This document shows positions 39,051-58,550 of a stretch of DNA of 64,000 nt, in pieces. Both the position numbers and the translations under genes were made by a program. Origin of the DNA: Gammaproteobacteria bacterium (GTDB lineage Bacteria > Pseudomonadota > Gammaproteobacteria > Eutrophobiales > Eutrophobiaceae); NCBI GenBank assembly GCA_965221695.1, contig OZ244905.1:2528001-2592000 (forward strand), in the 5' to 3' direction. The stretch's first letter is position 1. Each line of letters starts with the position of its first letter. Under the pieces are notes generated by a model. The model was not told the DNA's origin, searched no databases, and saw only the letters and a program-made list of their open reading frames with translations.

Positions 39051-39160
39051 GGAATCACGACCTGATTAGATATCTTCCCCTGGAAGCGCCGCGCTGTTGC
39101 AAAAAGCAAAGGGAATGTCACCTGGCGCAACAACCGCGGAATTTTTCAGATCCTTCGATG

Positions 39161-40558
39161 TTATATAGGATAGTGACCGGGTTCACTTTCAACCGTTATC
39201 CAGCGCAGTTCCGTAAAACTGTCAATACCTGCTTTCCCGCCGAATTTACCGTAGCCGGAAGCGCCGACTCCACCAAAGGGCATTTGCGCTTCGTCATGTA
39301 CGGTCGGACCATTGACATGACAGATACCGGATTGAATTTGCCGCGCGACCTTGAGACCTCTTGTCGCGTCTGAGGTAAACACTGAGGCGCTCAAGCCGTA
39401 TTCCGTGTCATTGGCGATACGAATGGCATCGGCTTCATCATTGGCTCGAATAATCCCTGCCACCGGACCAAAACTCTCATCAGAGTAAATATCCATGCCG
39501 GCAGTGACCCGATCAACCAGCGTTGCGGACATCAATACTGAGTCGTTTGTGCCGCCAACCAAAACAGACGCGCCTTTCGCTACGGCATCCTCAATCAGTG
39601 CGTTAACCCGCTCAACAGTCTTCATATCAACAACAGCTCCAAGCGGCGTTTTCCCTTCTCGCGGATCCCCGGCAACAAGGGTTTCCACTTTATCCCTGAG
39701 CTTTTGTACAAACTCTTCCGCCACGTCATCCACAACGATAATGCGCTCGGTTGACATGCAGATCTGCCCCTGGTTCATATAGGCGCCGAAGGCTGCGGCC
39801 TTCACAGCCTCGTCAAGATCGGCATCCTCCAGTACTACTAAGGGGGCCTTGCCGCCGAGTTCCAATAAACAGGGCTTGAGATGGGTGGCAGCGCGCTGTG
39901 CGATGATTCGGCCGACTGCAGTGGAGCCGGTAAAATTTATTCGCTTTACTGTCGGGTGATCGATGATAGCGCCGACAACTTCAGCAGCCGACTCGGGTGC
40001 ATTGGTCACAATGTTGATAGTCCCTTCCGGGAACCCCACTTCATTGCATGCATCAATGATCAGTTCATGGGTCCGCGGGCAGATTTCCGAGGCCTTGAAT
40101 ATGACGGAATTTCCACAGGCAAGAGGAGTGGCAATCGCCCTGACAGCAAGAATTATTGGCGCATTCCAGGGAGCGATACTGAGAATCACACCTACAGGTT
40201 CACGCAAGGTCATTGCCATACAACCCGGTTTGTCCGAAGGAATGACTTCACCACTAATCTGCGTGGTGATCGATGCTGCCTCTCGCAGCATGGAGGCTGA
40301 CAGCATGAGGTTAAACATAGTCCAGCCGGCAGTAGCGCCGATCTCATTTGCCATTGCCTCGAGAAACGCATCCTTTTTTTTCTCAAGCGCTTCAGCGGCT
40401 GCCATCAATAATTGGCGACGGTTATTTGGGCCCTGTTTTGACCAGGCTTGAAAACCAGACTGGGCCTTCTCACATATTGCCGGAATATCCGATGGCTGCA
40501 TCGCCACGGTTTTGCTTGCCAATTCCCCGGTAAGCGGGTTAAGACGTTCAAAATTCAT
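39161..40558 (-). CDS. vdh: Aromatic aldehyde dehydrogenase, vanillin dehydrogenase-like
   Basis: LREAASITTQISGEVIPSD, IAPWNAP, FTGST, ELGGK and GQICMSTER, closely resembling Vdh. Confidence 0.8.
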   Translation of the reverse strand: MNFERLNPLTGELASKTVAMQPSDIPAICEKAQSGFQAWSKQGPNNRRQLLMAAAEALEKKKDAFLEAMANEIGATAGWTMFNLMLSASMLREAASITTQISGEVIPSDKPGCMAMTLREPVGVILSIAPWNAPIILAVRAIATPLACGNSVIFKASEICPRTHELIIDACNEVGFPEGTINIVTNAPESAAEVVGAIIDHPTVKRINFTGSTAVGRIIAQRAATHLKPCLLELGGKAPLVVLEDADLDEAVKAAAFGAYMNQGQICMSTERIIVVDDVAEEFVQKLRDKVETLVAGDPREGKTPLGAVVDMKTVERVNALIEDAVAKGASVLVGGTNDSVLMSATLVDRVTAGMDIYSDESFGPVAGIIRANDEADAIRIANDTEYGLSASVFTSDATRGLKVARQIQSGICHVNGPTVHDEAQMPFGGVGASGYGKFGGKAGIDSFTELRWITVESEPGHYPI

Positions 40559-40603
40559 ACATTATTTCCTCTGATATTCTGTACATTGATTTTTCGCTCC
40601 GCC

Positions 40604-41704
40604 CTATACCGCCTTTTTGTACATACAATTATTATTGATGGCATCGACAACACTGCGGGTCACCTCGCTTGTTGTGGCTGTGCCACCAACATCCGGCGTC
40701 AGAATGCCGGCGCCTGTTGTTTGCTCAATAGCCGACATTAATACTTCGGCCGCTTCTGTTTGTTCAAGGTGAATGAGCATTTGTACAGCAGTCCAGAAGC
40801 TGGCAATGGGATTGGCAACCCCTTTACCGGTGATGTCAAAGGCCGCGCCGTGAATGGGTTCGAACATGGAAGGATAACGTCGTTCCGGGTCAATGTTTGC
40901 AGTAGGCGCAACGCCGAGGCTACCTCCAAGCGCGCCGGCAAGGTCCGAAAGGATATCCGCTTGCAGATTTGTGGCGACTATCGTGTCCAGGCTTGCGGGG
41001 TCCAGAGTCATTCTCACAGTCATAGCGTCAACGAGCATTTTATCCCACCTGACCTCCGGAAATTCAGTCGCTATTTCTGCCGCTATCTCGTCCCACATCA
41101 CCATACCATGTCGTTGAGCATTGGATTTGGTTACGACGGTTAGCAGTTTTCTGGGTCTCGATTTTGCCATTTGAAAAGCGTAGCGCATGATTCGGGTAAC
41201 GCCCACTCGTGTAAAAATAGCTACCTCCGTACCGATCTCCTCCCGGTGACCCCTGTGGGCACGACCACCATGACCCGAGTATTCACCTTCGCTGTTCTCC
41301 CGTATTATTACCCAGTCGAGGTCCCCTGGCTCACAGTTGCGCAGTGGTGAGGATATCCCCGGTAGCAGCCGGCTTGGTCTTACATTGGCGTACTGGTCAA
41401 ATCCCTGACAAATCTCCAGCCGTAAGCCCCATAACGTAATGTGATCGGGCACATCCGGAGCGCCTACCGCACCGAAAAGGATTGCATCGAATGGTTTTAG
41501 TATCTCCAACCCGTTCTCCGGCATCATCACGCCGTGTTTCTTGTAATAGTCCGAGCCCCAGTCGAAAGTTTCAACGTTGAATCCTATTTCAGGAAAGCAC
41601 ATTTGAATTGCCTTGAGCACTTCTATGGTTTCAGCAATCACCTCAATACCGATACCATCTGCCGGTATGGCTGCAATGTTATAAACGCATTTATTTTTAT
41701 TCAT
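40604..41704 (-). CDS. ttuC: Tartrate dehydrogenase/decarboxylase (D-malate dehydrogenase family)
   Basis: IPADGIGIEV, VPDHITLWGL, RENSEGEY, KSNAQRHGM and MFEPIHG. Confidence 0.88.
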   Translation of the reverse strand: MNKNKCVYNIAAIPADGIGIEVIAETIEVLKAIQMCFPEIGFNVETFDWGSDYYKKHGVMMPENGLEILKPFDAILFGAVGAPDVPDHITLWGLRLEICQGFDQYANVRPSRLLPGISSPLRNCEPGDLDWVIIRENSEGEYSGHGGRAHRGHREEIGTEVAIFTRVGVTRIMRYAFQMAKSRPRKLLTVVTKSNAQRHGMVMWDEIAAEIATEFPEVRWDKMLVDAMTVRMTLDPASLDTIVATNLQADILSDLAGALGGSLGVAPTANIDPERRYPSMFEPIHGAAFDITGKGVANPIASFWTAVQMLIHLEQTEAAEVLMSAIEQTTGAGILTPDVGGTATTSEVTRSVVDAINNNCMYKKAV

Positions 41705-41740
41705 TAGCTGTTCCTGACTTGAGAGTGTAATTGATATATT

Positions 41741-43036
41741 TCATTGCCGCTTACGCAGGTGCGCCAGAAGAAGCACCAGTAGAGATGAAAAGATCAATGC
41801 AGCGGCAACGCTGATCAACCCACTATTAAATTCTCCCGTTTGTTCTTTCATCCAGCCGATGATGAACGGACCGGCAAAACCACCCAGATTTCCAATCGAG
41901 TTAATCGTCGCAATACCGGTCGCGGCGGCCGCTCCTGTGAGAAATTGGGTGGGGATACTCCAAAGGGGTGGCTTGGCAGAGCTGACGCCGGCGCTTACCA
42001 GCGCCAGTGACAGAACCACCAGGATAAGGCTGGTGGAATACGCTGCGAGTACCAGCCCCATGGCGGCGACCAGACAGGCTCCCACTACGTGCCAGTTTCG
42101 CTCGCCGGTGCGGTCAGAATGTCTGGCCCAAAACACCATGACAAAGACCGCGAACAGCGGCGGAATTGCATTGATTATACCTGTGGCCAGGGGACCAATA
42201 CCGTACTGGGCGATAATCTGTGGAGACCAGATATTCACAGTGTAAAGCCCTGCGGAGGTACCAAAGTAAATCAGCGCCAGCGAAAGTACCCATGGGTCGA
42301 TAAGGCCGCGTAATACCGACTGGGTTTTGTGTTCATTTGCCACATTCTGTTGTTCGGCCTGCATCTTGGCAATCAACCAGTTCCGCTCTTCTTCGGTCAA
42401 CCATTGCGCCTGTTCCGGTCTATCCGTGAGGTACACAAGAACAACCCCGGCCAACAGCACTGCGGGAGCGGCTTCAACCAGAAATAACCACTGCCAACCA
42501 TGCAGGCCAAGCACGCCATCCATGGTCAGTAACGCACCGGAAATCGGCGAACCCAACGCAATTGATATCGGTACGGCCGCCATGAACAGCGCAGTCACAC
42601 CCGCGCGCTGTTGCGCAGGGAACCAGTAACTGAGATACAGAATAATTCCAGGGAAAAAACCTGCTTCTGCAGCGCCCAGCAAAAAGCGCAATATATAGAA
42701 ACTTGTAGGTCCCTGCACAAACGCCATAGCGCCGGAAATGATTCCCCAGGTGAGCATGATGCGAGCAATCCAGATGCGTGCGCCGACTCGATGCAGGATC
42801 AGGTTCGAAGGCACCTCAAACAGAAAATATCCGATAAAAAAAACACCCGCGCCAAAGCCGAAAGCGGCTGCCGACAAACCGACATCTTCGTTCATGGTCA
42901 GCGCAGCAAAGCCGACATTAACCCTGTCGAGATACGCGACAAAATAGAGCAACATGATGAAAGGCACTATTCGCCGCGTCAATTTGCGAATTACGCGCTG
43001 TTCAATCGTTGTGGTCTGTGTTGGAATTTCGGCCAA
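41741..43036 (-). CDS. ttuB: MFS transporter, TtuB-like (tartrate)
   Basis: AYLDRVNVGFA, FEVPSN..LHRVGARIWIARIM and AEAGFFPG; adjacent to ttuC. Confidence 0.75.
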   Translation of the reverse strand: MAEIPTQTTTIEQRVIRKLTRRIVPFIMLLYFVAYLDRVNVGFAALTMNEDVGLSAAAFGFGAGVFFIGYFLFEVPSNLILHRVGARIWIARIMLTWGIISGAMAFVQGPTSFYILRFLLGAAEAGFFPGIILYLSYWFPAQQRAGVTALFMAAVPISIALGSPISGALLTMDGVLGLHGWQWLFLVEAAPAVLLAGVVLVYLTDRPEQAQWLTEEERNWLIAKMQAEQQNVANEHKTQSVLRGLIDPWVLSLALIYFGTSAGLYTVNIWSPQIIAQYGIGPLATGIINAIPPLFAVFVMVFWARHSDRTGERNWHVVGACLVAAMGLVLAAYSTSLILVVLSLALVSAGVSSAKPPLWSIPTQFLTGAAAATGIATINSIGNLGGFAGPFIIGWMKEQTGEFNSGLISVAAALIFSSLLVLLLAHLRKRQ

Positions 43037-43144
43037 TTTTCATTCTTCTCTGTGGTCAACCAAAACCGTTACAGTAGCCTTATTCATCGTTGACAGCACT
43101 GATTGCGATGATTATATTAATTTTATGAATTATAGGCACTCCGG

Positions 43145-44053
43145 GTGAACCTTAATCTTTTGCGGTGCTATGTTGTTGTAGCAGAGGAACTTCATTTTGG
43201 CCGTGCCGCAAGACGATTGAACATTCTCCCCTCTTCTCTCAGCAGAAATATCAACCTGCTGGAACAGGAACTGGGGCTACGCTTACTATCCCGCACGACT
43301 CGCGATGTTGCCCTGACTCAGAGCGGGCATTCACTGGCGCAGGAAGCCAAGTCTTTGCTTGAACATTCAACTGAGGTTGCCGACCGGGTCAGAAGTTCTG
43401 CCACGAGTAAAGAGCGGGTATTTCGAATTGGCGCGATGGACAGCGCCGCGATCGGCTTGATACCACAGCTTATTCATGATTTTCGTGAATTGGTGCCCGA
43501 ACTGGAATTACGCCTGCTGGAGGAGAAGAGCGCCAGGCTGTTACCGAAGCTGTTATCGGGTGCGCTTGATGTGGCAATTATCAGCCAGCCGGAATGGCCA
43601 TTTGCCGAAATTGAATCTGAGTTCCTGCTCAACCAACGCATCATTGTCGCATTACCGGCCAATCATCCACTGGCAAAACACGTCATGCTGCGTGTCGATG
43701 ACCTTGCAGACGTTCCACTGATACTACCATCACCCAGGAGCCGGCCTCATAGTCACAACCTGACCATACAGCTTTTTCAGGATGCTTCATTACAGCCTCG
43801 CATCGTCCAGCAAGCAGAAGAGAAACAGACCATAATCAACATGGTTGGCGCGGAAATCGGCGCGGCCATCGTGCCTTACTGGGCTAGTCGAAATGTGGTT
43901 CAGGGAGTGGTTTTTCGACCTTTGGTAAACCATTCAGGCAAGCCCATAGAGGAATTGCCGTTAGCGGCTGCATGGATAAAAGGAACTCATGATGTGTTCC
44001 GCGACAAGTTAATGGGTTTGCTCAGAAACAACCTGGAACGCTACTCAAATTGA
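43145..44053 (+). CDS. LysR family regulator (TtuA-like), divergent from ttuB
   Basis: AEELHFGRAARRL HTH and LSRTTRDVALT. Confidence 0.9.
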   Translation: MNLNLLRCYVVVAEELHFGRAARRLNILPSSLSRNINLLEQELGLRLLSRTTRDVALTQSGHSLAQEAKSLLEHSTEVADRVRSSATSKERVFRIGAMDSAAIGLIPQLIHDFRELVPELELRLLEEKSARLLPKLLSGALDVAIISQPEWPFAEIESEFLLNQRIIVALPANHPLAKHVMLRVDDLADVPLILPSPRSRPHSHNLTIQLFQDASLQPRIVQQAEEKQTIINMVGAEIGAAIVPYWASRNVVQGVVFRPLVNHSGKPIEELPLAAAWIKGTHDVFRDKLMGLLRNNLERYSN

Positions 44054-44056
44054 GCG

Positions 44057-44992
44057 CTATTCTCTGTTAATCAGATACTTGTCGAACCAACTCAGCATTG
44101 CGCCGATGTAATCGGGTGGATCGTCCGGTTCTCGCCTGACCCTGCTGCCATTAACTACCTGGCTCGCCTCGAAGCGTGGTCCATGCCCGCCACCCTGCAC
44201 CGGTAACAGTTCGGTATCAATACCGGCCTGTATAAGCGCAGCATGCATTTTGACGGAGCGATCATACGGAACAACCGGATCAGCATCTCCATGTATCAGA
44301 AGGAAGGGCGGATCGTCGGGCGTAACATAAGTAATCGGCGAAGCTTCTGCGAGCAATTGAGATTCGACACTTCCCTTTTTTGCTGCATTTGTTCGAAAAC
44401 CGAACAATGGCGCATCAGGGTTGTCGCGGAGATCCATAGGCGCTGCGCGTGTTACCACAACTTGCACTTTTGCGCTTTCGCGGTTTATCTCGTTGGGATC
44501 AGTCGGGTCGCCGTCACCATCCATGACGCCAAGCATACTGACCAGGTGTGCGCCTGAGGAGCCTCCCATCGCGCCGATACGCGTCGGGACAATTCCGAAC
44601 TTTTCCGCATTGTAGCGGATATAACGGACTGCTCTTTGAACATCCTCGAGTGGCGCAGGGTAGCGAAAACGCGGCGCGGCCCTATGATTGATATTAAATA
44701 CCGTATAGCCGGCTTGCGCCAGCGGTTGTGCGTAGATCTTCTCCTGACCGGTTTGTGTAAGCGGAATTGCATCAAGGCTTAGTTCGCGGGTCCAGCCGCT
44801 TCCAGAGATAAAAATGATGCCATAGCCATTGGGTTTCTCCGGGTAATAGACATCCATCAGCAATGCAAGGCCAGAGTACATTCCGTAGATGACATTGGAA
44901 TCAACCCTGGTTTCGGCGCTTGCCAGTCCCGGTTTGCCCAGGCAAGCCAGCGCAAAAATAATGAGGCAAACATGTGAATTTGGTAATTTCAT
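44057..44992 (-). CDS. Exported HSL-family esterase (BD-FAE-like alpha/beta hydrolase)
   Basis: Signal peptide, SGSGW oxyanion region, GGSSG nucleophile, HGDADPVV and GGGHG. Confidence 0.8.
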   Translation of the reverse strand: MKLPNSHVCLIIFALACLGKPGLASAETRVDSNVIYGMYSGLALLMDVYYPEKPNGYGIIFISGSGWTRELSLDAIPLTQTGQEKIYAQPLAQAGYTVFNINHRAAPRFRYPAPLEDVQRAVRYIRYNAEKFGIVPTRIGAMGGSSGAHLVSMLGVMDGDGDPTDPNEINRESAKVQVVVTRAAPMDLRDNPDAPLFGFRTNAAKKGSVESQLLAEASPITYVTPDDPPFLLIHGDADPVVPYDRSVKMHAALIQAGIDTELLPVQGGGHGPRFEASQVVNGSRVRREPDDPPDYIGAMLSWFDKYLINRE

Positions 44993-45207
44993 ATCGCTCC
45001 TGGAATATGCGAATCTTAGCGGACGACGGTAGTGGAACAATTGTTGCATTTTTTTGTATAAAGTTCAGTATCGGAAGGTGCCTGCTTTTCTGAAATACAC
45101 TGAGTTTCACTTGTGGGGCTGTCTGCTGCTGACAATCGGGATATTCATTGAATATGCCACGCCTTCGGTTCGAACCAACCCTACTAACAGTGACTCGGGG
45201 GACTATA

Positions 45208-48090
45208 ATGAAACAACAACCTACTGCATCAATGCCTACCATCGCCCGCACTTTTTTGATGGTATTGTTCGGATACGTAATTACCCTGTCGGGTAACCTG
45301 GTAATAGCCCAGGACCAGGAAGGGGAAACCCTGGAGGAAATTGTTGTCACCGGTTCACGCATTGCCCGTAGTGACTTTGTATCGCCCAGCCCCTTGGTAA
45401 CTACTGAAATGGAATCGATCGTCTATTCCGGCCGATCAACGATTGATGACTATCTGAAGGACCTTCCTCAATTCGCTCCAGGGAGTGGTGACTACAGTAA
45501 TGACAGTAATGGTGGAACCGCAGGTCGTGCGACGTTGAACTTGAGAAACCTCGGAGCAAAACGCAACCTTGTTCTCATGAACGGGCGCCGTCTGATATCT
45601 TCAGGAACTGACGGCGCCATTGATATCAACACGATTCCATCACTTGCGATTGGAAAAATCGAGGTTATCACGGGTGGGGCCTCAGCGACTTATGGTTCTG
45701 ACGCCCTGTCCGGTGTCGTGAATTTCAAGACCCGTACAGACCTGGACGGCCTGGACTTCCAGGCCCAGTACTCTGTCTTGGATGGCGCCGGTCAGGACAA
45801 CTACAAAATCGGTGCGGCCTACGGAACAGACTACGCTAACGGCAGGGGCAACCTTCTGATTTCAGCAGAATTTACCGACCGTGGCGGTGTTCGCTACTTC
45901 GAACGAGATTTCTTCAATGTAAATCCTCAAGCAAGTCAGTTCACGGCGTATGGGTCTTCCCGTTTGTTACCTCGCGGTCAATTGATCTCGGCCAATAACG
46001 ACGGTACGGCATTCAACGCGAGTAATACTTCTTCACCTACAGGCGCTGGCGGGACAACTTTCAACGGAATTACCGAGCTTCCATTGCTGATTGACAGCCG
46101 AGGAACACTCAGAACCCATGGCCAGTTCAGAAACTGGATACAGGTACCGCTGGAACAAACAAACGTGTTCGGTACGACCGACTTTGAGTTTGATAATGGT
46201 ATTACGGCTTACGGACAGTTCCTGTACGCGTCTTCAACGGCTTTTAACGTCGGCGCAGAGCCAATTTCAGCAGGAATTTGGGGCATAAGGATACCCCAAG
46301 ACAACTTTTATCTGAATCAGGTTCCGGACATTGCCGGGTTAGTCGGCCCTGCTGGAATCAACGACTACCAGATTCGTTTTGTACAAGCCGGAAACCGGGT
46401 CTACGAGACTGACAACGATGTATACCAGGTTCTTGGCGGACTGAGCGGAAGCTTTGGAGAGCACGACTATAACTGGGATATTCACTTCTCTTACGGTAGA
46501 ACAGAAACATCTGACAGAACAATTTCCGGTTCCGTGAATTTCGCAGCCGTTCAGGACGTTATTGATACAACGGATGCGGCGACCGGCGTTAGCCCTCTTT
46601 GTGCGGGCGGCTTTAATCCATTCGGAGGAAGCGCCCCGCTGTCTGCCGAGTGTCTGGAATTCGTTTCTCGTACACCTGTGAACGATACGACTCTGGAACA
46701 GATCATCGTCGAAGCCACGTTAGAAGGAAGGCTTGCTGATATGCCGGCTGGCGAAGCCCGTTTTGCCTTGACCGCATCATACCGTGAAAATACCTATGAG
46801 TTTGATCCTGACGCTGATATAGCTGCAGGGGAGTTGGCAAACCTGGCGAGCGCCGGGTTCACGAAAGGAGAAATAGATGTTGTCGATATTTCAGGTGAGG
46901 TTCTGCTGCCACTCATTTCCGACGCTGAGATGCTCGATTCCATGAACCTGACGATGGGCGCGCGTTATTCGGATTATAGCCCTGCGGGTTCGCAGGAAAC
47001 CTATAAGGCTGAAGTTGATGCGCGAGTGAACAGCAACTTCATGTTGCGCGGTGGCTTCCAACATGCTGTTCGAGCGCCCAATGTTGAGGAATTCTTCAGG
47101 GCCAGTCTTTTGCGAGTTCAACCTTTCCTTGATCCCTGCAGCTCTCGATATAGAGGTGTAAGTGTGGACCGAGCTGCTGAATTAGCGCTTTGCGCGCTTC
47201 AAGGCGCTGACCGTAGCTATACTCAACCCGGTTCATCGGCGCCAACTTTCACAAACGGCAACCCCGACCTGACCCCTGAAGAAGCCGATACTTTTACCAT
47301 TGGCGCAGTCTTTGATTTTGACCTTGGCAATCTTGGCGCTCAGATTACCGTCGATTACTACCACATCAAGATTGACAATGCCATTGAGACCTTGTCAGCA
47401 CAGCAGATCATGACCAAGTGTTTCAACCTGGATGGCACATCCAATCCGACTTATGACAATAACTATTTCCCATGCCAGCAAATCAACCGTCCGGTTCTGG
47501 CGCCTGCGACAACCGCGTTTGATCTTGATCCGGTTAATCAACCGATCCTGAACCTGGGTGGAATTAAAACATCCGGCATCGACATATCGGCAAATTTCAA
47601 TCTTCCGGTGGAGAAGCTGGTCTGGGGCAACGGTGGCGGCGGCATTTACTTCTCGTCATACGTTAACATTCTTGATAAGCATAAAATTCAGGCTTTCCCA
47701 GACGAAGACTTTGCCGACTTTGCCGGACTTGTCGACCTGACCGTAGCTTACCCTGAATTAAGGCTGACCAACTCCCTGACTGTGGAAACAGGCCCTGTAA
47801 CACTCACCGGGGTGTGGCGTCATATTTCAGACATGGATGACATTTCAGCAGTCGGAGGCGCCGCTACCACCATCGAAGGCGCGGATTCGTATGACTACTT
47901 TGATTTGATTGCACGCGTAAATGTTAATGATAAGTTTGAAATCTATGGGGGTATCAACAACATCAGTAACAAGCAGCCACCTCAACTTGGTGGTGAACCG
48001 GTCGGCACCGTATTCTCGAATACCAACCAGGGATATTACGACGGCATTGGCCGTTCATTCTACCTTGGTGTGAATGCCGGTTTCTTCTAA
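45208..48090 (+). CDS. TonB-dependent receptor
   Basis: LEEIVVTGSRI, LRNLGAKRNLVLMNGRR, GASATYGSDALSGVVNF; C-terminal Phe. Confidence 0.95.
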   Translation: MKQQPTASMPTIARTFLMVLFGYVITLSGNLVIAQDQEGETLEEIVVTGSRIARSDFVSPSPLVTTEMESIVYSGRSTIDDYLKDLPQFAPGSGDYSNDSNGGTAGRATLNLRNLGAKRNLVLMNGRRLISSGTDGAIDINTIPSLAIGKIEVITGGASATYGSDALSGVVNFKTRTDLDGLDFQAQYSVLDGAGQDNYKIGAAYGTDYANGRGNLLISAEFTDRGGVRYFERDFFNVNPQASQFTAYGSSRLLPRGQLISANNDGTAFNASNTSSPTGAGGTTFNGITELPLLIDSRGTLRTHGQFRNWIQVPLEQTNVFGTTDFEFDNGITAYGQFLYASSTAFNVGAEPISAGIWGIRIPQDNFYLNQVPDIAGLVGPAGINDYQIRFVQAGNRVYETDNDVYQVLGGLSGSFGEHDYNWDIHFSYGRTETSDRTISGSVNFAAVQDVIDTTDAATGVSPLCAGGFNPFGGSAPLSAECLEFVSRTPVNDTTLEQIIVEATLEGRLADMPAGEARFALTASYRENTYEFDPDADIAAGELANLASAGFTKGEIDVVDISGEVLLPLISDAEMLDSMNLTMGARYSDYSPAGSQETYKAEVDARVNSNFMLRGGFQHAVRAPNVEEFFRASLLRVQPFLDPCSSRYRGVSVDRAAELALCALQGADRSYTQPGSSAPTFTNGNPDLTPEEADTFTIGAVFDFDLGNLGAQITVDYYHIKIDNAIETLSAQQIMTKCFNLDGTSNPTYDNNYFPCQQINRPVLAPATTAFDLDPVNQPILNLGGIKTSGIDISANFNLPVEKLVWGNGGGGIYFSSYVNILDKHKIQAFPDEDFADFAGLVDLTVAYPELRLTNSLTVETGPVTLTGVWRHISDMDDISAVGGAATTIEGADSYDYFDLIARVNVNDKFEIYGGINNISNKQPPQLGGEPVGTVFSNTNQGYYDGIGRSFYLGVNAGFF

Positions 48091-48110
48091 AGAAGCTCTG
48101 CACGCCACGA

Positions 48111-48184
48111 TTGCATATAACTGTTGGCACAGACCAGGACATTACCCCATAGCACTCCCGCAATAGCGGGAGTCCGGTCAAATA
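48111..48184. repeat. REP-like element family A (half copy)
   Basis: TGGCACAGACCAGGACATT...CACTCCCGCAATAGCGGGAGTCCGGTCAAATA. Confidence 0.75.
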
Positions 48185-48709
48185 ATGAAAATTATTCCGC
48201 TTATTTTCTCTCTACTGATTGTTATTTCGCTTCCATGCTTAGCCAATAAAGATCAAGAATCCATCTTTGAGCAATACCCGTCCAAACCGCCCGGCGTCGG
48301 CGCTGAGCCAGTGCTTCAGCTATACGTCACCTTGACTGCTTCGATTGATGTGGGGCAGACAGACGATGGGCAACGCTATATCGTTCCAATTACCGGCGGT
48401 TATTTTACAGGAAACGGAATTTCCGGGGAGGTGCTGCCCGGTGGGGCAGACTGGCAGGTCGTGCGCGCCGACGGAATAAAGAAAATTATCGCCTTGTATT
48501 CGATCAGAACATCTGATGGGGAAGTCATCATAGTGGACAACCAGGGTATCAGTTACACGGATGATGACGGGCGCTACAGACGAACCATTCCAAAATTTCA
48601 TGCCCCCAAGGGAAAGTATGACTGGCTGAACAAAAGCCTGTTTGTCGGAACAATTACGTCCATAAAACAACCGCGTGCGGTTATTATTAGAGTATACGAA
48701 GTGAAATGA
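48185..48709 (+). CDS. DUF3237 family protein with signal peptide
   Basis: IVPITGG.F.G..ISGEVLPGGADWQ and YDWLNKSLFVG. Confidence 0.85.
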   Translation: MKIIPLIFSLLIVISLPCLANKDQESIFEQYPSKPPGVGAEPVLQLYVTLTASIDVGQTDDGQRYIVPITGGYFTGNGISGEVLPGGADWQVVRADGIKKIIALYSIRTSDGEVIIVDNQGISYTDDDGRYRRTIPKFHAPKGKYDWLNKSLFVGTITSIKQPRAVIIRVYEVK

Positions 48710-48799
48710 GCGGGTCCCACGGCGACGCAGCGTTTGATCTTTGCTGCGCCAGAGACTTTTATCATTGGCGGCACGTTACAAACTGGAGGATTTATCTGT

Positions 48800-49639
48800 A
48801 TGAGCGCTGAAAGAAAAGAAGAAGATACGGTTGCATACGAGATTGAGAACCAGATTGCCTGGGTCAGGTTCAATCGCCCCGAAAAGCGTAACTGCATGAG
48901 TCCCAAACTGAATCGACAGATGATGCGCGTTCTTAAAGATATCGAGTTTCGAGAGGATGTTGGCGTGCTGGTCCTGACCGGTGAGGGAACAGCATGGTCT
49001 GCGGGCATGGATTTGAAAGAATACTTCCGCGAAACCGAGGCACAAGGTCTTGGCGCTATCCGGGAAGCCCAGAGCGAAGCCTATGGCTGGTGGCGCAAGC
49101 TGCGTTGGTACCAGAAACCTACGATAGCAATGGTTAATGGTTGGTGTTTCGGCGGTGGTTACGGCCCGCTCCATGCCTGTGATTTGGCATTTGCCGCAGA
49201 AGACGCGCAGTTCGGCCTTAGCGAAATAAATTGGGGCATCCTGCCCGGCGGTGGGGCAACCAAGGTTGCCACCAATTTGCTGAATATGCGGAATGCGATG
49301 TATCACGCCCTGATGGGAGAGAACATTGATGGCAAAACTGCTGCGGCATGGGGATTGGTAAACGAGGCGGTTCCTCAGGCAGCACTGAAAAGCCGTGTTA
49401 TTGAAGTGGCTGAGACTTTGCTGGAAAAGAACCCCGTGGCGCTGAAGGCAACCAAGGATGCAATTCGCCGGGTGATGGAAATGACTTATGACAATGCTGA
49501 GGATTTCCTGATTCGAGCACAGGAATCCGCAAACTTTTTTGATAATCAGGGTCGCAAAGCGGGAATTAAGCAATTTATAGATGAAAAGACCTACAAGCCG
49601 GGTCTGGGAGCATACGACAAGTCTAAACAGGCTGACTGA
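48800..49639 (+). CDS. ech: p-Hydroxycinnamoyl-CoA hydratase/lyase (HCHL)
   Basis: NRPEKRNCMSP, WSAGMDLKEYFRE, GWCFGGG, LSEINWGILPGGG and C-terminal YKPGL; GGAGG RBS. Confidence 0.93.
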   Translation: MSAERKEEDTVAYEIENQIAWVRFNRPEKRNCMSPKLNRQMMRVLKDIEFREDVGVLVLTGEGTAWSAGMDLKEYFRETEAQGLGAIREAQSEAYGWWRKLRWYQKPTIAMVNGWCFGGGYGPLHACDLAFAAEDAQFGLSEINWGILPGGGATKVATNLLNMRNAMYHALMGENIDGKTAAAWGLVNEAVPQAALKSRVIEVAETLLEKNPVALKATKDAIRRVMEMTYDNAEDFLIRAQESANFFDNQGRKAGIKQFIDEKTYKPGLGAYDKSKQAD

Positions 49640-49654
49640 GGACGATCCGCGGAA

Positions 49655-51121
49655 ATGGATTATGTAGCGCTACATGCGCGTTTTCGGCCAGACAAGCTGG
49701 CGGTTTCCGACTTGGCACACAAGCGTCACTGGACCTACTCACAGTTTGATCAATGCATCGCCCGCTGCGTAACAGCGCTTCAAACGAGCGAAATAGCGGC
49801 AGGAGACAGGGTAGCCGCTCTTTCGAAAAACAGGGCGGAGCTGATTACTCTCCACCTGGCCTGCGCGCGCATGGGCGCTATATTTGTTCCCTTGAACTGG
49901 CGGCTCTCTCCTGCGGAAATTAGTCACCTTATTGATGACTGTATGCCGACCCTGCTGATGGGTGACAGCATGGCGGGAAGCGTTGGTGTTGATTACCAGC
50001 CTATCGAAGAATTATTTGAGCGCTGCGATAGCTGCGAGCCAGCTTTTCCACCTGCGGTATCGGCGGACCTGCCATCTTTGATTCTTTATACTTCGGGTAC
50101 CACCGGTAAGCCCAAGGGTGTCATGCTCAGTGAGCGTAACATTACGGAGACCGCTATCAACTTTTCGATATTGGGAGATGTGGAAAGTCAGAGCGGGTTT
50201 CTTTGTGAATCGCCCATGTTTCACATAGTAGGATTGATCACATCAGTTCGACCACCATTTCTGCGAGGTGGGCATGTTGTCATTTCGGATGGTTTTGTTC
50301 CTGAACGCACGCTGAGCCGGTTGTCAGACCCGGAGCTTAACATCAGCCACTTTTTCTGTGTTCCGCAGATGGCTCGTGCCTTACGCAGAGAGGATAGTTT
50401 TGATCCTGAAAAATTACGTCACCTTAAAGCAATTTTTACAGGTGGCGCGCCACATCCGGAGGCACAAATCCGCGAGTGGTTGAACGATGGTATCGCGCTT
50501 GTTGACGGGTACGGCAGCTCAGAAGCAGGCACTGTTTTTGGCATGCCCCTGGACAGAACCATCATTGACTCGAAAGCAGGTTCTGTTGGTGTGCCGACAC
50601 CGCGTATCGGTCATCGACTTGTGGACAACAATGGAAATACAGTTCCTGACGGTATTGAAGGCGAATTGCAGTTGCGGGGAGACAATGTCACTGCCGGTTA
50701 CTGGCAGCGGGAAAATGATTACTCGGAATATTTTACCGACGACGGCTGGTTCCTTACCGGTGATATCCTGATGATCGACGAAGATGGTTTCTATCGAGTT
50801 ATTGATCGAAAAAAGGATATGTATATATCCGGCGGTGAAAATATCTATCCCGCCGAAATTGAAGCGCTTCTGGCCAAATTTCCTGGTGTGACGGAAATAA
50901 CAGTAGCGGGTGTTCCTGACAAAAAGTGGGGGGATGTCGGTTGTATTTTTTACGTCACAGATTCGGCAACTGTTACGATTGAAGAGTTTTCTGATTTTCT
51001 CAGCGGAAAACTTGCCCGCTACAAGTTACCACGCAAAGCGCTGAAGCTGGAAAAAATACCCAGGAACAGCGCAGGAAAAATTCTGAAGCACGCACTTAAA
51101 GAAATGTTCATAGGCCAGTGA
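49655..51121 (+). CDS. AMP-forming acyl-CoA ligase, putative hydroxycinnamoyl/feruloyl-CoA synthetase
   Basis: YTSGTTGKPKG, GYGSSEAG, GWFLTGD and SGGENIYPAEIE; follows ech. Confidence 0.8.
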   Translation: MDYVALHARFRPDKLAVSDLAHKRHWTYSQFDQCIARCVTALQTSEIAAGDRVAALSKNRAELITLHLACARMGAIFVPLNWRLSPAEISHLIDDCMPTLLMGDSMAGSVGVDYQPIEELFERCDSCEPAFPPAVSADLPSLILYTSGTTGKPKGVMLSERNITETAINFSILGDVESQSGFLCESPMFHIVGLITSVRPPFLRGGHVVISDGFVPERTLSRLSDPELNISHFFCVPQMARALRREDSFDPEKLRHLKAIFTGGAPHPEAQIREWLNDGIALVDGYGSSEAGTVFGMPLDRTIIDSKAGSVGVPTPRIGHRLVDNNGNTVPDGIEGELQLRGDNVTAGYWQRENDYSEYFTDDGWFLTGDILMIDEDGFYRVIDRKKDMYISGGENIYPAEIEALLAKFPGVTEITVAGVPDKKWGDVGCIFYVTDSATVTIEEFSDFLSGKLARYKLPRKALKLEKIPRNSAGKILKHALKEMFIGQ

Positions 51122-51122
51122 T

Positions 51123-52424
51123 ATGAGAAATAACCCTCAGCAGATTCTGGATGAAATGCCCATGGGGCGACTACAGGTCGCCGCCGTTTGCATTTGCGTA
51201 TTGCTTAACGGCCTGGACGGTTTTGATGTCCTGGCAATCAGTTTCGCTGCGCCAGGTATCGCCGCGGAATGGGGGATCAACCGCGCTGCGCTGGGTGTCG
51301 TACTGTCGATGGAGTTGATAGGCATGTCCATAGGATCTATTTTTCTGGGCGGAGTTGCGGACCGCTTTGGCCGCCGACCGATGATTCTGCTTTGCCTGGT
51401 ATTGATGACAGCGGGTATGTTTCTGGCAGCACAAGCGGGAGATGTCGTCACATTGTCACTGATTCGTCTTGTCACAGGTCTAGGAATAGGCGGTATGCTT
51501 GCCTCGACCAACGCCATGGTAGCGGAATATTCCAATGCCAGGCGACGTGACTTTTGCATTGCAGTGATGGTAGCCGGATATCCGTTGGGAGTAATAATCG
51601 GAGGTACCTTCGCTTCGATGCTGTTGGCATATTTTGACTGGCGATCGGTGTTCCTGCTCGGGGCAGTAGGAACAGCGGCCATGTTCCCGGTAGTGTGGCT
51701 ATTTTTACCCGAGTCAATTGCTCACCTGGTACATAAACGGGGACCGGGGGCATTGGAAAAGATAAACGCCACATTAAAACGCATGGGGCACGGTATTATT
51801 GATGCATTGCCGGAACTTGCAGAAGAAGGTCCCAAAGCCAGTTGGCGGGACCTGTTTTCGCCCGGCCTGGTCCGTATTACCCTGTTACTCACCCTGTGTT
51901 ACCTGACGCATATCATGACCTTTTACTTCATTTTAAAATGGGTGCCCAAGATAGTCGTAGATATGGGCTTTGCTGCCTCAGCAGCCGGTGGCGTACTGGT
52001 CTGGGCGAGCGTAGGCGGCGCCGCTGGTTCGTATCTGTTCGGGTGGTTAACACATTATTTTCGGCTGCGAAGATTGGTCATATTTGCGATGGCAGGTTCA
52101 GTGATAATGGTCAACATCTTCGGACAAGGTCAGTCCGACCTGACAACATTGGCTGCAGTCGCTTGCCTGGCAGGAATATTTACCAATTCCGCAATTGTCG
52201 GCCTGTATGCCTTGTTTGCCCGATTGTTTCCAACGCATTTACGCGCAGGGGGCACTGGTTTTGTTATAGGTGTTGGTCGCGCCGGCGCCGTTCTTGGCCC
52301 GATAATAGCAGGCATCCTTTTTGAAAGCGGCGAGGGACTGGCTGGGGTTGCATTCATCATGGCGTTGGGTTCTCTCGTTGCCGCAATCCTGCTAACGATG
52401 TTGCGCGATCCCGATCCATCTTGA
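51123..52424 (+). CDS. Aromatic acid:H+ symporter family MFS transporter
   Basis: LDGFDV, ADRFGRRP and FPTHLRAGGTG. Confidence 0.85.
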   Translation: MRNNPQQILDEMPMGRLQVAAVCICVLLNGLDGFDVLAISFAAPGIAAEWGINRAALGVVLSMELIGMSIGSIFLGGVADRFGRRPMILLCLVLMTAGMFLAAQAGDVVTLSLIRLVTGLGIGGMLASTNAMVAEYSNARRRDFCIAVMVAGYPLGVIIGGTFASMLLAYFDWRSVFLLGAVGTAAMFPVVWLFLPESIAHLVHKRGPGALEKINATLKRMGHGIIDALPELAEEGPKASWRDLFSPGLVRITLLLTLCYLTHIMTFYFILKWVPKIVVDMGFAASAAGGVLVWASVGGAAGSYLFGWLTHYFRLRRLVIFAMAGSVIMVNIFGQGQSDLTTLAAVACLAGIFTNSAIVGLYALFARLFPTHLRAGGTGFVIGVGRAGAVLGPIIAGILFESGEGLAGVAFIMALGSLVAAILLTMLRDPDPS

Positions 52425-52536
52425 CATGGTCAGGAAAACAGACTGCACCAAACCATACCAACCACACCCGTTCAGTGCAGGAAGGGAACGATTTACACTG
52501 AATCCTGTCGAACTTTAACGTACTATTGATCCTTGC

Positions 52537-56341: not shown

Positions 56342-56477
56342 ACAACATGCTTGAACCTGCGCGCAAGCTCAAACACGAAGCTTTTGGCTTTCACCAAGCG
56401 CTGCTCGACACTACGCTGGGAGCGCGGGTGCCACCAGCTTGGGATCGCCCGATGTATCTGCCAGTCTGATTGAAGCC

Positions 56478-58550
56478 ATGTCAAAAGATCCCTCAACGAA
56501 TGAAGACAGGCCCGGCCGAATCGAGGCGGCACAGTATGTACCGCTCTCGTCAAAAAAATCCGCCCGATCCATTCGGGTTAATCCGCGGCGTTTCCTCATC
56601 GCCGCGTTGCTGACGCTCGGCGCGTTTTGCGCGTGGTTCATGTTCAGCGCCAGAGCCGTTTATATCGAAACAGAGCCCGCGAATGCCGGCATAGAGCTGT
56701 CCGGCTCACTGAAACTGAAGCTGGCGCACCGCTACCTGCTGCGCCCCGGCGCCCATGATCTTCTCGTCTCCGCCGAGGGCTTCCGGCCGTTACGGGAAAC
56801 ACTTGTCGTCAGCGCAGAGGCTGCCCAACACTACCTGTACCGGCTGGAAAAACTGCCCGGCCACCTGCTCATCGACAGCGGCGCGGTAACCGGCGCAGAG
56901 GCGCTGCTGGACGGTATTTCCAGAGGGAACACGCCGTTGCGCGTCGGCGACCTGGCGCCGGGCGAGTATCTGCTGGAGATCAGGGCCGAGCGTTATCTGC
57001 CATGGCGCGGGGAGATAATGATAGAAGGAATGGATCGTGAACAGTCGGTGAGCGCAGAGTTAAAGCCGGCCTGGGCGGAAGTCAGTATTGCGTCGGAACC
57101 GGCTGCTGCGCAGGTGTTCAGCGGGGACGAAATACTTGGCACAACGCCGCTCAGCGCGCAACTGCTGCAGGGCAGGTATGAGATCAGGATCAAGGCAGAC
57201 GGCTACAAGGTCTGGCAGGACTCGATTAACGTGGTCGCGGGCAAACCACAGTCCCTCTCCGACATCAGGCTGGAACCGGCAGACGCCACGCTGTTCCTGG
57301 TGTCCACGCCAGCCCGGGCGAATGCCACCATCAACGGCAACTTCATGGGCCTGACGCCGCTGGAAGTCGCAATCACGCCCGGAGAAGCCACCCGAATTCG
57401 ACTGTTCAAACAGGGTTACAACCCGGCCACGAACTCCGTGACCGCGCAGTCGGGCGAGCAGAAAAGACTATCTGTAACCCTGGAACCGGAACTGGTGGCG
57501 GTGGCAGTCAGGGTCGATCCTGCTGATGCGCAATTATTCGTCGACGGCGCGCCGGTTGGAGAGGGCAGCCGTACTTTGCAGTTGCCCACTCGCAAACACC
57601 GGATCGAGGTGCGCAAGCAGGGTTACGTCGATTACAAGACTGAGCTGACACCCCATTTCGGAGTCGAGCATGAATTGGTCGTGCGCTTGAAGTCGGTCAA
57701 ACAGGCAAAGCTGGAGGCTCTCAAACCAGTCATTACGGCGCCGGCCGGTCAAACCCTGAAGCTGTTGTACCCGGACGCCGTTACCATGGGCGCGTCGCGC
57801 CGGGAACCAGGGCGCGGGGCCAATGAAATCCTGCGCAACGTCAAGCTCACGCGGCCGTTTTACCTGGCGCTGAAAGAGGTGACAAATCAGGAATACCGGT
57901 TGTTCGACAAGGGTTTTACGTCCGGGGCCGAGCGCGGCAACAGCCTGAATGGGGACAAACAGCCGGCGGTAAAACTCACCTGGGAGCAGGCGGCAAACTA
58001 TTGCAACTGGTTGAGCAAAGAAGCCTCCCTGACCCCGTTCTACGTTGAACAGGACGGCAAAATTACCGGTTTTGATAACACCGCAAACGGCTACCGCCTG
58101 CCGACCGAGGCGGAATGGGCCTGGGCCGCGCGTACCACGAGCACAGGGCAAACGCTAAAGTTCCCTTGGGGCGCAGAGATGCCTCCCACAAAAAACAGTG
58201 GCAATTACGCCGACCGTAAAGCCGCATCCTTGTTCAGCAGGGTCATCGTCAACTACGATGACGGTTATGTCGTCAGCGCGCCGGTAGGCAGTTTTCCGCC
58301 CAACGGCAAAGGCCTGTTCGACCTGGGCGGCAACGTCGCGGAATGGGTCAACGATTTCTACGGCGTCGAAGTCAGCGCCGGCGGCAAAGTTGAACTCGAC
58401 CCCATGGGACCGGCAAGCGGCGAGTTCCGAGTCATCCGCGGCTCAAGCTGGGCACACGGCGCCATTACCCAACTACGCCTGTCATTCCGCGACTACGACA
58501 ACAAGGCCCGAAACGACGTAGGCTTCAGGATTGCCCGTTTTGCGGATTGA
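56478..58550 (+). CDS. PEGA-repeat + FGE-sulfatase (SUMF1-like) domain protein
   Basis: TM anchor; several PEGA repeats (SEPAAAQV..G.TPL); RLPTEAEW, DLGGNVAEW, RGSSW and VGFRIAR. Confidence 0.9.
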   Translation: MSKDPSTNEDRPGRIEAAQYVPLSSKKSARSIRVNPRRFLIAALLTLGAFCAWFMFSARAVYIETEPANAGIELSGSLKLKLAHRYLLRPGAHDLLVSAEGFRPLRETLVVSAEAAQHYLYRLEKLPGHLLIDSGAVTGAEALLDGISRGNTPLRVGDLAPGEYLLEIRAERYLPWRGEIMIEGMDREQSVSAELKPAWAEVSIASEPAAAQVFSGDEILGTTPLSAQLLQGRYEIRIKADGYKVWQDSINVVAGKPQSLSDIRLEPADATLFLVSTPARANATINGNFMGLTPLEVAITPGEATRIRLFKQGYNPATNSVTAQSGEQKRLSVTLEPELVAVAVRVDPADAQLFVDGAPVGEGSRTLQLPTRKHRIEVRKQGYVDYKTELTPHFGVEHELVVRLKSVKQAKLEALKPVITAPAGQTLKLLYPDAVTMGASRREPGRGANEILRNVKLTRPFYLALKEVTNQEYRLFDKGFTSGAERGNSLNGDKQPAVKLTWEQAANYCNWLSKEASLTPFYVEQDGKITGFDNTANGYRLPTEAEWAWAARTTSTGQTLKFPWGAEMPPTKNSGNYADRKAASLFSRVIVNYDDGYVVSAPVGSFPPNGKGLFDLGGNVAEWVNDFYGVEVSAGGKVELDPMGPASGEFRVIRGSSWAHGAITQLRLSFRDYDNKARNDVGFRIARFAD

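Follow-up and report, generated by a model that had tools for sequence, protein, structure and literature searches.

The present analysis concerns a gene island of about 13 kb within a window of 64,000 nucleotides (contig OZ244905.1, positions 2,528,001 to 2,592,000 of the forward strand, assembly GCA_965221695.1) from the metagenome-assembled genome (MAG) of an uncultured marine-type gammaproteobacterium, in which a putatively exported esterase and a TonB-dependent receptor stand next to genes for the use of tartrate and of hydroxycinnamates. From our point of view, comparison of the sequences points to hydroxycinnamoyl-tartrate esters, namely caftaric, coutaric, fertaric and chicoric acids, as the compounds that this island serves, a reading to which we assign a probability of roughly 0.6. 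It is very likely that the esterase, the receptor, the ttu genes and the hydroxycinnamate genes represent one co-regulated and co-inherited unit, and the real ties between its two halves, as far as sequence can tell, are the linkage of the esterase to the ttu genes and a shared operator. The first-pass annotation had described a contiguous cluster of ten genes, and all ten open reading frames (ORFs) were recovered at the coordinates and with the families it had given, by means of the ORF list and of Pfam and NCBIfam scans. Together with two operator-like boxes, the features are as follows (MFS, major facilitator superfamily).

39161-40558, minus strand: aromatic aldehyde dehydrogenase of the vanillin/protocatechualdehyde type (Pfam Aldedh, 484 bits)
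40604-41704, minus strand: TtuC-type tartrate dehydrogenase/decarboxylase (TIGR02089, 554 bits, cut-off 470)
41741-43036, minus strand: TtuB-like ACS-family MFS carrier (MFS_1), a presumed tartrate importer
43107-43129, minus strand: operator-like box 1 in the lysR/ttuB divergent region (conserved block and matrix scan)
43145-44053, plus strand: LysR-type regulator, TtuA-like, divergent from ttuB (HTH_1 and LysR_substrate)
44057-44992, minus strand: BD-FAE alpha/beta-hydrolase esterase with a signal-like N-terminus (PF20434, 148.5 bits, cut-off 26.8)
45044-45066, plus strand: operator-like box 2 between the genes for the esterase and the TonB-dependent receptor (matrix scan)
45148-48090, plus strand: TonB-dependent outer-membrane receptor (plug PF07715, 56 bits; barrel PF00593, 80 bits)
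48185-48709, plus strand: DUF3237 protein with a signal-like N-terminus (PF11578, 107 bits)
48734-49639, plus strand: p-hydroxycinnamoyl-CoA hydratase/lyase (HCHL/Ech; NF006588, 457 bits, cut-off 276)
49655-51121, plus strand: AMP-forming acyl-CoA ligase (AMP-binding; PRK09088, 663 bits, under the cut-off of 696)
51123-52424, plus strand: MFS carrier of the aromatic acid/H+ symporter (AAHS) family (TIGR00895, 348 bits, under the cut-off of 418)

The esterase belongs to a large family (3258 hits with E <= 0.001 among 5875 candidates), and a scan of one genome per species yielded 213 relatives, the best 80 loci of which were analysed with the ten window proteins as tblastn queries. TtuC, the TtuB-like MFS carrier and the LysR regulator adjoin the esterase in 13 gammaproteobacterial loci (L001-L007, L009-L012, L039 and L055), and in the Gemmatimonadota locus L008 (esterase identity 72%) TtuC alone stands beside it, with 51% identity to that of the window and 505 bits, which is over the cut-off. 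The other 66 of the 80 loci gave none of the ten proteins by tblastn, save HCHL and the ligase in L052, an incomplete esterase copy near a contig end; L052 and L009 belong to a single MAG. When a maximum-likelihood tree of 81 rows was computed in a quick run, the window, these 14 loci and L052 formed one clade (16 of the 81 rows) with an SH-aLRT support of 99 and a stem length of 0.3, and the neighbours of this clade are Vicinamibacteria-type esterases without ttu genes. Around such non-ttu esterases, in Vicinamibacterales and others, only housekeeping or unassignable neighbours were found, and ORF calls are poor there at high GC. The named relatives, all of them MAGs, bear the labels Gammaproteobacteria, Pseudohongiella, Woeseiaceae, Rariloculaceae and Gemmatimonadota; Pseudohongiella and Woeseiaceae are lineages of marine water and sediment.

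In all 15 full-length members of the clade a TtuC-type gene lies within 10 kb of the esterase, across at least eight gene arrangements and two phyla. In L055, four genes in a row on one strand read ttuB-ttuC-ttuD-esterase, and the ttuD-type gene among them encodes a glycerate kinase (DUF4147 and MOFRL), which points to tartrate rather than D-malate. Among 400 Gammaproteobacteria drawn evenly over families (the negatives of which include four genomes flagged as unpublished), the esterase (E <= 1e-60) occurs in a single genome, G000, which is that of the window itself, and TtuC over the cut-off occurs in 22, while the two sampled genomes of the window organism's family hold neither. The linkage within the clade and these background rates together suggest that the esterase clade depends on ttu, whereas ttu often does without the esterase. 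As we read the sequences, the data reflect retention through many rearrangements and in two phyla, and not repeated independent assembly. The first-pass annotation had proposed to look for ttuBC and ech side by side in other genomes, and this is indeed what is found, in that esterase and ttu go together in each of the full-length members and HCHL and ligase lie nearby in most lineages.

The second tie is regulatory. A conserved AT-rich block lies between lysR and ttuB in the 12 loci compared, and a matrix derived from ten of these intergenic regions finds its next-best matches upstream of the genes for the TonB-dependent receptor or the esterase or upstream of hchl in most loci, as well as matches upstream of a monooxygenase gene in L004 and L005. 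Sites related to box 2 precede the receptor, esterase or hchl genes in L003, L004, L006, L007, L009, L010, L011 and L012, the hchl promoter itself carrying the shared box in L006, L007, L009 and L010. The summed best score of the target promoters amounts to 152.7, compared with 76.6 ± 10.5 for column-shuffled matrices, and 0 of 500 shuffles reach it. Counting the loci in which the target beats other intergenic regions (7 of 10) proved worthless, as 160 of 500 shuffled matrices equalled this count.

Box 1 overlaps the -10-like hexamer of a promoter that faces lysR and is the best sigma-70-like one in the scan (43090-43118), and for this reason a stricter, out-of-lineage matrix was built from eight sites upstream of receptor, esterase or hchl genes in lineages other than that of the window. 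When the 3.54-Mb genome was scanned with it on both strands (about 7 million positions), rank 1 fell on window positions 45044-45066 (score 24.7) and rank 2 on 43107-43129 (20.1), followed by rank 3 with 19.9. There is some circularity in the second rank, as the lysR/ttuB box of the window had already contributed to the matrix by which the eight training sites were chosen; the first rank, i.e., box 2, is a genuine out-of-sample prediction. Since the LysR protein is the only regulator common to all 14 gammaproteobacterial loci carrying ttuC, we infer that it binds both operator-like boxes. The next-best matches to the stricter matrix lie at G000:C1 1138321 (19.9), 3194875 (19.2) and 520678 (18.6), and these sites could possibly mark further members of the regulon. 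As a separate observation, the lysR-ttuB intergenic region of L010 (208 bases) contains a run of short direct repeats, GTGACCCCGT/TTGACNCC, which is absent in other lineages.

The borders of the island also speak for a unit. Compared by blastn with the relatives L001, L002 and L039, the window shows about 89-90% identity over positions 40590-52426 (40411-52424 in L039), and no homology to these 90%-identical relatives was found by blastn in the flanks, which hold genes unrelated to the cluster of a housekeeping kind (AddAB-like helicase/nuclease, M48 peptidase and TPR proteins). The left border lies at 39143 in L039 and the right border at 52426, both almost identical to the limits drawn by the first-pass annotation, and the grouping is more than chance. 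The cluster genes have a GC content of 0.48-0.535; the genome as a whole stands at 0.55 and the next ORF at 0.63. In view of the sharp borders, the different context in 90%-identical relatives and the lower GC content, the stretch 39143-52426 is probably a horizontally mobile catabolic island. Six sequencing runs from five studies contain at least part of the stretch, and no RNA dataset is listed among them.

In the esterase, the nucleophile S145 within a GGSSG motif, D236/D238 and H270 are invariant in 28 aligned sequences, which fits a Ser-Asp-His core. Its N-terminus, MKLPNSHVCLIIFALACLGKPGLASA, looks like a signal peptide, as judged by eye only, and the enzyme is probably exported and periplasmic. 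All solved relatives are distant (at most 117 bits in a sequence search against structures), and a fold search with an AlphaFold (AF2) model of the esterase (pLDDT 81) returned 6xyc, 6tkx, 6nkf and 6mly as the nearest structures, that is carbohydrate/feruloyl-type esterases and lipases with 26-28% identity. Three arginines set the clade apart: all 15 members compared have R189, R273 and R286, and these residues occur in none of the 33 sister and 33 other sequences. R273 lies three residues past the catalytic His270, and R286 lies within a clade-specific insertion that forms a beta-hairpin in the predicted model. One could speculate that additional arginines close to the active site would be favourable for an anionic alcohol or leaving group such as tartrate.

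The tartrate half is, judging from its sequence and layout, a true ttu unit. Searched by tblastn against plasmids, the MFS carrier matched Agrobacterium vitis plasmids (68.5% identity over residues 7-406), and in plasmid pRvVAR031b the region is annotated as LysR, divergent from a run of MFS carrier, tartrate dehydrogenase, glycerate kinase and pyruvate kinase. The LysR, MFS and TtuC proteins of the window are 50, 68.5 and 77% identical to those of the A. vitis ttuA/B/C region, with the same order and orientation, and TtuC scores 350 bits against the tartrate dehydrogenase of P. putida (3flk). The TAR regions of A. vitis are reported to have a ttuA|BCDE layout (PMC9219206). The window thus shares with A. 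vitis ttuABCDE the divergent LysR, the carrier, the dehydrogenase and their order, and it differs from it in three respects: it has neither ttuD nor ttuE, its unit is joined to an aromatic aldehyde dehydrogenase, and it is flanked by esterase, receptor and hydroxycinnamate genes, whereas the A. vitis region has no esterase within 13 kb and is for the free tartrate of grapevine. A glycerate kinase of the GarK type is encoded elsewhere in the genome of the window.

With regard to the hydroxycinnamate half, HCHL matches the feruloyl-CoA hydratase/lyase 7xwc with 446 bits, and translation probably begins downstream of the TTG, as homology is seen only from residue 27 onwards. The best solved relatives of the CoA ligase are 8weu/8wev, fatty-acyl/'Feruloyl-CoA Synthetase' (288 bits), and the protein is presumably a hydroxycinnamate-CoA ligase; the hits of the AAHS carrier after TIGR00895 are PcaK and MhpT. 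HCHL and the ligase are found within loci L001, L002, L006, L007, L009, L010, L011, L039 and L052. In the L055 genome, just past the fetched flank, the genes for an AAHS carrier (55% identity), an aldehyde dehydrogenase (76.6%), HCHL (79.6%) and a ligase (56.5%) follow each other, and in the L012 genome HCHL (84%), a ligase, an AAHS carrier, DUF3237 and an aldehyde dehydrogenase (50.6%) lie equally close to the fetched flank. Full sets of the ten functions are hence present in at least three lineages, in three layouts.

The aldehyde dehydrogenase itself has 6qhn, a salicylaldehyde dehydrogenase (776 bits), and 9ihb, a 'vanillin dehydrogenase' (745 bits), as its best solved relatives. It had been claimed that its position directly after the tartrate genes ties the two halves together. 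The position is correct (45 bases after ttuC on the same strand), but it does not hold as a tie, being a feature of this genome alone: in L001, L002 and L039 only remnants of the gene survive, and in L055 it stands beside HCHL. About 60 bases are left in L001 (14405-14463) and L002 (14405-14464), equivalent to window 40274-40333, while L039 has kept the first 148 bases (window 40411-40558) and the last 78 bases and has lost about 1.17 kb; L039 12042-12138 is a remnant that matches window 39143-39238. Two different deletions are thus seen in these relatives and the window copy is intact, which in our interpretation of the sequences means that the dehydrogenase is ancestral to the lineage of the window and has decayed in its relatives. 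The argument from position is limited to this genome.

Orthologs of the receptor with 68-92% identity occur in L001-L004, L011, L012, L039 and L055. The protein is 980 residues long, siderophore-receptor models match it weakly and in the plug, and it may import the intact ester. The DUF3237 gene accompanies the receptor in L001-L004, L012, L039 and L055, and the solved relatives of its product are UPF0311 proteins, which are uncharacterised, together with a weak PhnH match. Members of the DUF3237 family, namely PhcF, PhcG and PinX, are reported to be cofactor-less phenolic-acid decarboxylases (PMC9942872, PMC12607616). The window protein shares the DUF3237 domain with these enzymes, and its N-terminus looks like a signal when read by eye; no role is assigned to it in the simple tartrate-ester model.

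For the aromatic products, the genome holds a protocatechuate/gallate 4,5-cleavage-type cluster at about G000:C1 679,500-686,000 (locus L099, 8576-14897), which comprises LigA-like and LigB-like subunits, a LigK aldolase, 4-oxalomesaconate tautomerase, an amidohydrolase and a Gfo/Idh/MocA oxidoreductase. A PRK07538 FAD monooxygenase sits with it, and a member of that family also lies beside the esterase-ttu genes in Pseudohongiella-type loci. PcaHG was looked for in the genome without a match over the cut-off; all that turned up was a catechol 1,2-dioxygenase-like protein, and ring cleavage is of the LigAB type instead. As judged from these genes, the organism can probably dispose of protocatechuate.

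In the pathway that we propose, the TonB-dependent receptor would carry the ester across the outer membrane and the exported BD-FAE esterase would cleave it in the periplasm. Tartrate would then enter the cytoplasm via the TtuB-like carrier and be oxidised by TtuC towards glycerate, for which GarK would be supplied from elsewhere in the genome. The hydroxycinnamate would enter via the AAHS carrier, and CoA ligase, HCHL and aldehyde dehydrogenase would convert it into acetyl-CoA and protocatechuate, 4-hydroxybenzoate or vanillate, which could feed the 4,5-cleavage cluster. The TtuA-like LysR would control both divergent promoter regions through the shared box.

Besides the overlap and the circularity that affect box 1, several observations weigh against this reading. 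The fold matches are uninformative on the substrate of the esterase, and its specificity is unreadable from sequence. Both the CoA ligase and the AAHS carrier score under their curated cut-offs, the missing ttuD is not replaced by a DUF4147 protein anywhere in the whole genome, and TtuC-family enzymes also accept D-malate and meso-tartrate. The linkage of esterase and ttu is confined to one clade and may therefore go back to a single ancestral event. Lastly, no HCHL over the cut-off exists genome-wide in the three Pseudohongiella-type genomes L003-L005, despite their having esterase and ttu. Beside these genes they carry an enoyl-CoA hydratase, the PRK07538 monooxygenase, a CoA-transferase III, an acyl-CoA dehydrogenase, a MaoC-like protein and an HpcH/CitE-like lyase, and since other acyl-CoA genes replace HCHL in this way, the acyl partner may differ there. 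The acyl-side route is consequently not universal.

In L003 (7329-14321) and L004 (7329-13001), the esterase and ttu genes are interleaved with those for CoA-transferase III, a MaoC-like dehydratase, the HpcH/CitE-like lyase and acyl-CoA dehydrogenase. We take this gene set to resemble one for the degradation of itaconate or of a C5-dicarboxylate. An aromatic-acid symporter is also present in both loci.

How far could other explanations account for the island? It might comprise two independent operons that travel together, that is a unit for free tartrate (or D-malate) and a hydroxycinnamate unit whose esterase acts on chlorogenate, rosmarinate or feruloylated sugars. The halves do occur separately, as in the A. 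vitis ttu region without an esterase or in the sampled genomes that have TtuC (22 of 400) and, G000 apart, lack the esterase, and the solved BD-FAE relatives act on xylan-type esters. We nevertheless consider this rather unlikely, as none of the 15 full-length clade members is without ttuC throughout the rearrangements and the two phyla, the esterase of L055 sits inside the ttuBCD transcription unit, esterase and ttu persist together in genomes without HCHL, and the two promoter regions hold the two best matches of the genome to one and the same box. A different alcohol moiety is also conceivable, namely another 2-hydroxy-dicarboxylate handled by a TtuC and TtuB of shifted specificity, be it D-malate, piscidic or fukiic acid (substituted tartrates) or an ester of the isocitrate or tartronate type. 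TtuC is, as is generally known, a promiscuous member of the isopropylmalate/isocitrate dehydrogenase family, its L008 counterpart is only 51% identical, and the DUF3237 family, for which the simple tartrate model has no use, acts on p-hydroxyphenyl-substituted acids. The identities of TtuC and the MFS carrier to A. vitis ttu (77 and 68.5%), a TtuC score well over the equivalog cut-off and the TtuD-type glycerate kinase behind ttuC in L055, as expected for tartrate, make such a shift unlikely.

The acyl part may also be the variable one, so that tartrate esters with a non-hydroxycinnamate or lineage-specific acyl group would be used and HCHL would be an add-on of some lineages. The conserved core consists of the esterase, lysR, ttuB and ttuC, and it is the branch L003-L005, with CoA-transferase, acyl-CoA dehydrogenase and CitE-like lyase in place of HCHL and ligase, that keeps this explanation alive. 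It seems quite improbable to us all the same, given that the HCHL-less L003 and L004 still have aromatic-acid symporters and aromatic-type monooxygenases, that all other lineages for which enough flank is available have HCHL as a neighbour, and that its promoter carries the shared box in four loci. Iron piracy, finally, would have the receptor import an Fe(III)-catechol ester such as that of chicoric acid and the esterase free the iron, as Fes/IroE do with enterobactin, with catabolism as mere salvage. A TonB-dependent receptor is indeed paired with an exported esterase, and PepSY_TM proteins, which are often linked to ferric-siderophore reduction, occur in L005, L007 and L009. Full carbon-catabolic routes for both halves, a regulator of the LysR/TtuA-like type (a Fur box was not searched for) and a receptor of 980 residues that siderophore-receptor models match only weakly, in the plug, render it very improbable.

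Returning to the hydroxycinnamoyl-tartrate reading, a stronger version of it can be imagined, to which we give somewhat less than an even chance. The island would then be the first bacterial pathway dedicated to chicoric and caftaric acid, which dominate the soluble phenolics of several seagrasses, and a compact mobile element among marine-type Gammaproteobacteria that is present in at least one Gemmatimonadota MAG. In it, a TtuA-like LysR, probably by sensing the tartrate set free, would switch on the receptor, the esterase and both branches via one operator, and the three arginines acquired by a new esterase subclade would recognise the tartrate carboxylates.

Most of the parts are familiar from other organisms. 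The fcs/ech/vdh genes of Pseudomonas and ferA/ferB of Sphingobium SYK-6 resemble the HCHL, the AMP-forming ligase and the aromatic aldehyde dehydrogenase of the window, but in the latter the dehydrogenase follows ttuBC and not ech, the ligase is distant from solved Fcs, and an esterase, a TonB receptor and tartrate genes accompany the set. In Acinetobacter ADP1, the hca/qui genes, reportedly described by Smith et al. in 2003, are said to link a chlorogenate esterase to genes for the acid and the quinate moieties. The esterase there is reportedly HcaG, with uptake through a porin and a MarR-type regulator. This system is the closest in logic, in that an ester is split and the genes for both moieties are linked; it differs in that the alcohol is quinate instead of tartrate and that porin and MarR-type regulator take the place of the TonB receptor and LysR of the window. 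Activity on caftaric and chicoric acid is said to have been found by Bel-Rhlid in 2012 for an esterase of Lactobacillus johnsonii. Cinnamoyl esterases of Oenococcus oeni are described as hydrolysing hydroxycinnamoyl tartrates of the caftaric/chicoric type (PMC6857119). These enzymes of lactic acid bacteria have the activity that is proposed for the window esterase, and they appear as stand-alone enzymes, with no linked catabolism of tartrate or acid reported in the accessible portion of that source. For the receptor, DdvT of Sphingobium SYK-6, a TonB-dependent receptor for the lignin-derived dimer DDVA (PMC6874591), provides a precedent for the TonB-dependent uptake of an anionic aromatic carbon source; its substrate is a different one.

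The individual parts, i.e., the ttu operon, the fcs/ech/vdh route, BD-FAE esterases and TonB-dependent aromatic uptake, are already known, and it is the combination that appears to be new. The first-pass annotation knew of no described cluster of this composition, and our literature searches, limited in coverage, agree with it: no published bacterial cluster joining an esterase to tartrate and hydroxycinnamate catabolism was found, with most subscription journals and supplementary tables lying outside the coverage, including Supplementary Table 8 of PMC9262712, which concerns phenolic-degradation genes that seagrass-sediment MAGs express. Grape, chicory, Echinacea and several seagrasses contain hydroxycinnamoyl tartrates as major soluble phenolics, and chicoric acid has been reported in five seagrass genera (PMC3982519). 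In Posidonia sediments, seagrass phenolics are reported to slow microbial sugar consumption, chicoric acid being taken as the main phenolic of P. oceanica extract (PMC9262712). In this context, the island could serve as a candidate marker for the organisms that remove tartrate-ester phenolics in marine sediments and holobionts, and as a candidate source of a tartrate-ester-specific esterase. It may further represent an example of a free-acid operon (ttu) recruited into a receptor and esterase system for a conjugated plant metabolite.

Some further features of the related loci and of the window should be mentioned. Secreted proteins with a metallo-beta-lactamase fold accompany the esterase-ttu genes in lineages without the window-type receptor: one, with an HGHNDH motif and no Pfam match, lies at L009 8529-9893 and also occurs in L005, L007 and L010, and a second, subclass B3-like and far below cut-offs, lies at L007 8582-9637. 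The gene for a PepSY_TM protein adjoins these genes in L005, L007 and L009. The former protein, termed c10 in L005, L007, L009 and L010, had been considered as an outer-membrane channel replacing the receptor, an idea that was dropped in view of its signal peptide and its HGHNDH metallo-beta-lactamase-fold motif. In L011 (407-3458), from the Rariloculaceae-labelled MAG, ttuB-ttuC is followed on the same strand by an unassigned ORF of 234 residues, a second alpha/beta hydrolase, which is FrsA-like, and a thiolase. In the window itself, a large protein with three PEGA domains and an FGE-sulfatase (formylglycine-generating-enzyme-like) domain is encoded at 56439-58550, downstream of TPR and unassigned ORFs.

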